Source: Escherichia coli
GTDB lineage: Bacteria; Pseudomonadota; Gammaproteobacteria; Enterobacterales; Enterobacteriaceae
NCBI RefSeq assembly: GCF_001677475.2
Contig: NZ_CP015229.1
Direction: 5' to 3' (one strand)
DNA: 64,000 nt
This document shows positions 42,135-42,220 of the stretch, piece after piece. Under the pieces are notes generated by a model, which was not told the DNA's origin, did not search any database, and was given only the letters and a program-made list of their open reading frames with translations. Positions within the stretch are counted from its first letter, which is position 1. Each line of letters begins with the position of its first letter. The position numbers and the translations under genes were made by a program.

Positions 42135-42143
42135 TTATCCACA
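42135..42143 (+). promoter_or_regulatory. DnaA box in nrdAB promoter region
   Basis: TTATCCACA exact consensus upstream of nrdA. Confidence 0.7.
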
Positions 42144-42173
42144 AAGTTATGCACTTGCAAGAGGGCCATTTTC

Positions 42174-42220
42174 ACACTATCTTGCAGTGAATCCCAAACA
42201 TACCCCCTATATATAGTGTT
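42174..42220. promoter_or_regulatory. tandem NrdR boxes in nrdAB promoter
   Basis: cacactatcttgcagtg and ccctatatatagtgtt palindromic 16-mers about 75-120 nt upstream of nrdA start. Confidence 0.65.

Follow-up and report, generated by a model that had tools for sequence, protein, structure and literature searches.

The region between yfaL and nrdA in the 64,000-nucleotide stretch of Escherichia coli DNA analysed here (hereafter, the window) is best read, with a probability of roughly 0.64, as the control region (sigma-70 promoter plus operator) of nrdAB-yfaE, the class Ia ribonucleotide reductase operon, in its E. coli form, with DnaA boxes upstream and an NrdR operator composed of box 1 and box 2 (Table 1). 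An nrdAB promoter with DnaA and NrdR sites is already known, and the NrdR pair named in an earlier sequence-only reading of this DNA is the superseded one; the operator that is supported by binding data reaches 42250. The sequences, positions, spacings, scores, conservation and K-12 identity given below were computed in this study, whereas binding constants and regulatory outcomes were taken from published papers.

Table 1 Features of the nrdAB control region and neighbouring genes (positions in the window)
Feature	Position	Strand	Remarks
yfaL-nrdA intergenic spacer	41608..42296		689 bp, ORF limits; contains the nrdAB control region
ypaB	42026..42169	-	Annotated 47-codon ORF; Starts inside the promoter spacer; 5' part runs across the -35 hexamer and both DnaA boxes; conservation may reflect a protein or the regulatory DNA
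DnaA box TTATCCACA	42135..42143	+	Exact consensus; upstream member of two direct 9-mers
Second DnaA 9-mer TTATGCACT	42147..42155	+	Two mismatches to TTATCCACA; 3 bp after the first box
-35 hexamer TTGCAA	42155..42160	+	nrdA promoter; direct reading
NrdR box 0 TCACACTATCTTGCAG	42172..42187		Historically predicted upstream box; 5/6 core, C in place of A6
-10 hexamer TATCTT	42178..42183	+	Direct reading; within NrdR box 0
NrdR box 1 CCCCTATATATAGTGT	42204..42219		Central consensus box; 6/6 core
NrdR box 2 GTACTACAGGTAGTCT	42235..42250		Central AG; past the end of the 42135-42220 span
Operon nrdA-nrdB-yfaE	42297..46055	+	Operon under control; ORFs and annotation of the homologous K-12 and E2865 regions
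nrdA	42297..44582	+	ORF
nrdB	44671..45801	+	ORF
yfaE	45801..46055	+	ORF

Based on gene order (gyrA-ubiG-yfaL-ypaB-nrdA-nrdB-yfaE-inaA), the locus is the same as in K-12. The spacer is bounded in the ORF map by the yfaL start codon (41607, minus strand) and the nrdA ATG (42297), and measures 689 bp (an AT-rich 690 bp in the sequence-only reading), with a GC content of 25–29% across 41600–42000, the AT-rich distal spacer. When positions 42020–42300 were compared to K-12 MG1655, a single mismatch was found in 281 bp, at 42166 (C in the window, T in K-12), in the stretch that separates the -35 hexamer from box 0 and within none of the sites; every named element of K-12 nrdAp is identical in sequence, order and spacing to the window. 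With only one base different from K-12 over the proximal 281 bp, this is therefore the textbook nrdAB promoter, already known. The whole spacer was matched over at least 80% of its length in 5,423 of 5,426 complete E. coli genomes (top identity 98.5%), and of 5,425 genomes all except one carried the 126-bp core (42130–42255) at ≥95% identity (the exception at 90–95%), whereas the distal AT-rich spacer of the window reaches only about 98% identity with the closest-matching complete E. coli genomes. Searched against Rfam, 41500–42400 gave nothing beyond a snoRNA match attributable to chance (E = 0.18; 25 bits, gathering score 60).

Some strain variation was seen around these elements. The nrdA-nrdB gap (44583–44670) is 88 bp long, as in strain E2865, compared to 233 bp in K-12, whose annotation places the small ORF yoaM there; the difference appears to be an insertion/deletion that is polymorphic among strains. 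E. coli SK1144 belongs to a divergent lineage with a spacer about 90% identical to that of the window. Its nrdA 5' leader lacks the 13 bp CGGAAAGAATTCC (L084 about 2150–2165, corresponding to window positions about 42266–42278), and its NrdR box 2 carries two substitutions, at the non-core positions 1–2.

The nrdA promoter hexamers are separated by a 17-bp spacer and together match 8 of 12 consensus positions. Because this lies below the threshold of 9 of 12 used in a generic sigma-70 scan, the nrdA promoter was not listed by that scan, which returned only matches in the AT-rich distal spacer. A promoter this weak fits one that depends on an activator. Tuggle and Fuchs reportedly determined in 1986 an nrdA leader of 110 nt, by which +1 would lie near 42187; the DnaA 9-mers would then presumably span about -52 to -32, and the NrdR operator of boxes 1 and 2 about +18 to +64. 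According to Shahid et al. 2026 (bioRxiv 10.64898/2026.05.11.724285), box 0 extends over the -10 region and the transcription start.

The exact DnaA box of the sequence-only reading is present at 42135–42143; a second 9-mer (42147–42155), which that reading had missed, follows in the same orientation. TTATGCACT and the -35 hexamer share one base, the last of the 9-mer and the first of the hexamer, and TTATGCACT departs from the relaxed consensus TTWTNCACA at its last base only. Motif counts by themselves carry little weight, given that TTATCCACA occurs twice in the 64 kb (0.5 expected; two or more copies in 7 of 100 shuffles), which is not beyond chance, and the relaxed consensus matches seven times (5.6 expected). 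The other exact copy (10949–10957) is located inside the ecotin (eco) coding sequence (ORF 10833–11342) and was set aside as a probable chance match. A relaxed-consensus match, TTATTCACA, was also seen in the gyrA-ubiG intergenic region (37023–37031), ending 5 bp before the ubiG ORF start. The 9-mer at 42135 counts as a site due to its context and conservation, rather than the number of 9-mers: it is identical in K-12, E. albertii, the metagenome-assembled genome (MAG) L014, Hafnia and phage P7. TTATGCACT is invariant in K-12, E. albertii, the MAG and phages P1 and P7, as is the two-9-mer block, with diverged flanks.

In the review PMC8203912 (citing Augustin 1994 and Olliver 2010), the nrdAB promoter is assigned two nucleotide-independent DnaA boxes and one DnaA-ATP-specific box, and it is activated by DnaA-ADP or low DnaA-ATP and repressed by high DnaA-ATP. 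Roles of DnaA, Fis and IciA at this promoter are cited in PMC2892513. Judging from its position, TTATGCACT would be the second DnaA box of this literature, and DnaA binding and its transcriptional effect at 42135–42155 are presumed here from the literature on the identical K-12 sequence.

Three NrdR boxes lie 47–125 bp upstream of the nrdA ATG, with linkers of 16 bp (box 0 to box 1) and 15 bp (box 1 to box 2), i.e., 32 and 31 bp from start to start. Box 0 and box 1 are in helical phase, and all three boxes are in helical register. The sequence-only reading had described two palindromic 16-mers, and both are present (42172–42187 and 42204–42219), but only the latter is palindromic (12 of 16 self-complementary positions); the former is self-complementary at 6 of 16, and box 2 at 10 of 16. 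The conserved NrdR positions are C4, A6, A8, T9, T11 and G13 (Shahid et al. 2026, 10.64898/2026.05.11.724285), of which box 2 matches five (T9G). As this six-position core alone is unspecific (15 perfect matches in the window, 17 expected), we adopted a weight matrix, which was symmetrised and built from only four boxes, those of E. coli nrdHIEF and nrdDG. Among the 63,985 window positions scanned with it, box 1 ranked 1st (18.5 bits), box 2 2nd (10.8 bits) and box 0 13th (6.7 bits), and as pairs, box 1+2 scored 29.3 and box 0+1 25.2, with the next best pair in the window at 7.2. The matrix scan, which had been proposed as a check on the earlier reading, thus bore out its motifs, favouring box 1+2 over box 0+1 and leaving box 0 well above background.

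The operators of E. coli nrdHIEF and nrdDG have the same design as that of nrdAB (a 15-bp linker between two 16-bp boxes that carry the C4/A6/A8/T9/T11/G13 core). In contrast to both, the nrdAB operator is located downstream of its promoter and is accompanied by an extra phased upstream box, and its box 2 has a central AG in place of the AT of the nrdHIEF and nrdDG boxes. The AG centre is acceptable, since the central dinucleotide tolerates change (Shahid et al. 2026, 10.64898/2026.05.11.724285).

Published binding data set the two possible pairs apart. The pair now called box 0 and box 1 goes back to a prediction by Rodionov and Gelfand and was the one that Torrents et al. worked with; Rozman Grinberg et al. 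2025 (PMC12176259) gave the older boxes their present names and recognised the new box 2. Using microscale thermophoresis (MST), the KD of E. coli NrdR-ATP-dATP was >6000 nM on box 0+1 and 113 nM on box 1+2 (PMC12176259), and the nrdHIEF, nrdDG and nrdAB box 1+2 operators show similar KD values (113–160 nM) with the same NrdR form (PMC12176259). Both published MST oligonucleotides occur verbatim in the window (42167–42224 for box 0+1; 42199–42255 for box 1+2). As cited in PMC12176259, Torrents 2007 found that mutation of box 1 abolishes NrdR binding, whereas mutation of box 0 in a 185-bp fragment leaves binding in EMSA unaffected. The failure of box 0 has been traced to the C at position 6, where C6A improves binding 10-fold (Shahid et al. 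2026, 10.64898/2026.05.11.724285); a G:C pair at position 6 impairs NrdR binding, and position 9, the one at which box 2 deviates, tolerates change (Shahid et al. 2026). The paired boxes that the sequence-only reading had placed within 42135–42220 therefore correspond to the older annotation, but not to the tightly bound pair, which includes box 2 beyond that span. In E. coli, box 0 is a weakened site that probably contributes little on its own.

Taken together with the literature, the region would work as a weak promoter (TTGCAA-17 bp-TATCTT) with the two direct DnaA 9-mers upstream and touching the -35 hexamer. DnaA bound at these 9-mers, as DnaA-ADP or at low DnaA-ATP, would help RNA polymerase, and at high DnaA-ATP a further ATP-specific site would be filled and the promoter shut; dNTP synthesis would in this way be linked through DnaA to the cycle of replication initiation. 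NrdR would repress nrdAB when dATP is abundant. Loaded with ATP alone, NrdR assembles into oligomers that lack DNA binding, and the operon would be derepressed (for the nucleotide dependence of NrdR, see PMC12176259 and PMC9110341). Deletion of nrdR derepresses PnrdA in vivo. NrdR may repress by sterically hindering polymerase at the start site, or by blocking open-complex formation or promoter escape. The replication-coupled (DnaA) and dNTP-responsive (NrdR, sensing dATP/ATP) control proposed in the sequence-only reading is thus documented in the literature, on K-12 DNA nearly identical to that of the window.

To place this arrangement among related bacteria, nrdA upstream regions of 76 other Enterobacterales species were compared to the window (77 sequences with the window included, drawn from the best 80 loci). 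The core of box 1 is complete (6/6) and invariant in 77 of 77 sequences from these loci. A box at the box 0 position is likewise present in all 77, always at 5/6 with C6, and is separated from box 1 by a 16-bp linker (15 bp in one species). Box 2, at a core match of at least 5/6, was found among the 77 sequences only in E. coli, E. albertii and the MAG, and is absent from the other 73 species; its C4, A6, T11 and G13 are retained in E. albertii, the MAG and E. coli SK1144, with variation at other positions. Gene neighbourhoods differ as well. In nearly all other genera, ubiG is directly upstream of nrdA (L005–L081, positions 1–1500, compared to window positions 37867–42169), and yfaL, the AT-rich spacer and ypaB lie between ubiG and nrdA only in E. 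coli, E. albertii and the MAG. Two other species (L052 and L058) have a distant yfaL-like gene upstream of nrdA and keep the promoter type described below.

A total of 71 species carry a different, 'Salmonella-type' layout, in which the 3' end of box 1 runs straight into an invariant TTATCCACA (e.g., L007, about 1395–1470, some 100 bp upstream of nrdA) and, in most of them, an inverted copy, TGTGGATAA, follows about 30 bp further on. These 71 species have neither box 2 nor a DnaA box upstream of -35, which is the opposite of the Escherichia layout, and their -35/-10 pair (TTGTAC ... TAGAAT) is unlike the TTGCAA ... TATCTT of Escherichia. Shared with E. coli are the box 0-type box, the 16-bp linker, the consensus box 1 and DnaA control; in Salmonella and Klebsiella, box 0 and box 1 read ACTCACCATATAGCGT and CCCCTATATATAGTAT, separated by the 16-bp linker. 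Hafnia also has the upstream TTATCCACA, together with CACTTGCAA. Across the 71 species, positions 4, 6, 7, 8, 9, 11 and 13 of box 0 are essentially invariant, whereas positions 10, 12 and 14–16 vary; this is the NrdR contact pattern.

An alternative is that boxes 0, 1 and 2 act jointly, with NrdR tetramers alternating between pairs or assembling cooperatively over all three, so that on long or supercoiled DNA repression would cover the -10 hexamer and start site as well as the early transcribed region. The helical register of the boxes, the placing of each among the 13 best of 63,985 positions and the ability of NrdR to form higher oligomers and filaments (PMC12176259) are consistent with this arrangement, as is the retention of box 0 throughout the family and of box 2 within Escherichia. 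The reported DNA-binding form, however, is a tetramer contacting two boxes (PMC12176259, Shahid et al. 2026), extra affinity on a three-box fragment is supported by no measurement, and the box 0 mutation was silent in EMSA on the 185-bp fragment. We therefore regard joint action of the three boxes as unlikely, albeit the strongest of the competing explanations.

Even less probable, in our judgement, is that NrdR acts in vivo on the classical pair of box 0 and box 1 and blocks access to the -10 hexamer and the start site, with box 2 accessory or incidental. Several observations speak for this pair, including its presence and spacing in all 77 sequences, the conservation of box 0 in the 71 species (positions 4, 8, 9, 11 and 13 invariant; 10, 12 and 14–16 free, as in the NrdR pattern), and its score of 25.2, which is far above the window background. 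Furthermore, mutating the NrdR1 box of Salmonella, the equivalent of box 0, raises nrdAB expression (PMC2892513). Against these stand the MST constants of the two pairs (KD >6000 nM for box 0+1, 113 nM for box 1+2), the unaffected binding of the box 0-mutated 185-bp fragment, and the box itself, with a C at the critical position 6 and poor palindromy; moreover, its conservation may partly reflect promoter or start-site constraint. Given the NrdR-like conservation and the Salmonella mutant, the E. coli in vitro data may nevertheless understate the role of box 0 in vivo or in other genera, and the same two observations weigh against the preferred reading with box 1+2 as operator, because box 0 may be less dispensable than short oligonucleotides indicate. 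Finally, chance matches in an AT-rich spacer, with no regulatory role, can be dismissed: a single exact 9-mer and the six-position NrdR core do occur in the window at chance frequency, but the extreme matrix ranks and pair scores and the conservation over dozens of genera argue strongly against it, and published binding and expression data on identical DNA already refute it.

The upstream half of the Escherichia control region has relatives in phages. The homologue of YpaB is UpfO of phage P1, and the segment 42059–42173 (corresponding to L083 4001–4115, L085 1201–1315 and L087 601–715), which contains most of the ypaB ORF, both DnaA 9-mers, the -35 hexamer and spacer, is 95.7% identical to P7 and 82.6% to P1. 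This module was also found in Salmonella phage SJ46 and in 235 E. coli plasmid records, and in the one plasmid examined it adjoins P1-type hot and humD genes. P1 and P7 share with E. coli both DnaA 9-mers, the -35 hexamer and the spacer, and homology extends no further than the edge of NrdR box 0; unlike in E. coli, NrdR boxes are missing from the phage copy and nrd genes do not follow it. Depositors of the P1/P7 records (GenBank M95666, AF234173 and AF503408) had already labelled an 'nrdA-like promoter' with a 'dnaA box'.

These comparisons allow the tentative suggestion, to which we give somewhat less than even odds, that the Escherichia nrdAB control region is a derived, chimeric rewiring of the ancestral enterobacterial one. 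An insertion of yfaL-ypaB would have brought the upstream module (two DnaA boxes, -35 hexamer and spacer) into E. coli, E. albertii and the MAG, where a new NrdR box 2 would have taken the place of the downstream DnaA boxes. If so, one lineage moved DnaA from downstream to upstream and NrdR pairing from boxes 0+1 to boxes 1+2, which would explain why box 0 is conserved as an NrdR box yet is bound poorly in E. coli. A limited literature search returned no statement of such a rewiring of Escherichia nrdAB, and the P1 homology itself was already annotated.

For annotation, the value of these results is that the NrdR operator should be drawn to 42250 and that box 0, which overlies the -10 hexamer, does not qualify as a proven site in E. 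coli. At the nrdAB promoter, a classic model, DnaA connects dNTP supply with replication initiation, and NrdR, a repressor that is under consideration as an antibacterial target, connects it with the dATP/ATP balance. Comparison across genera provides a natural experiment in which two regulators are repositioned around a fixed central operator: box 0 is kept everywhere compared, whereas box 2 and the upstream DnaA boxes are essentially Escherichia-specific (Hafnia also having the upstream TTATCCACA) and tied to the module shared with P1.
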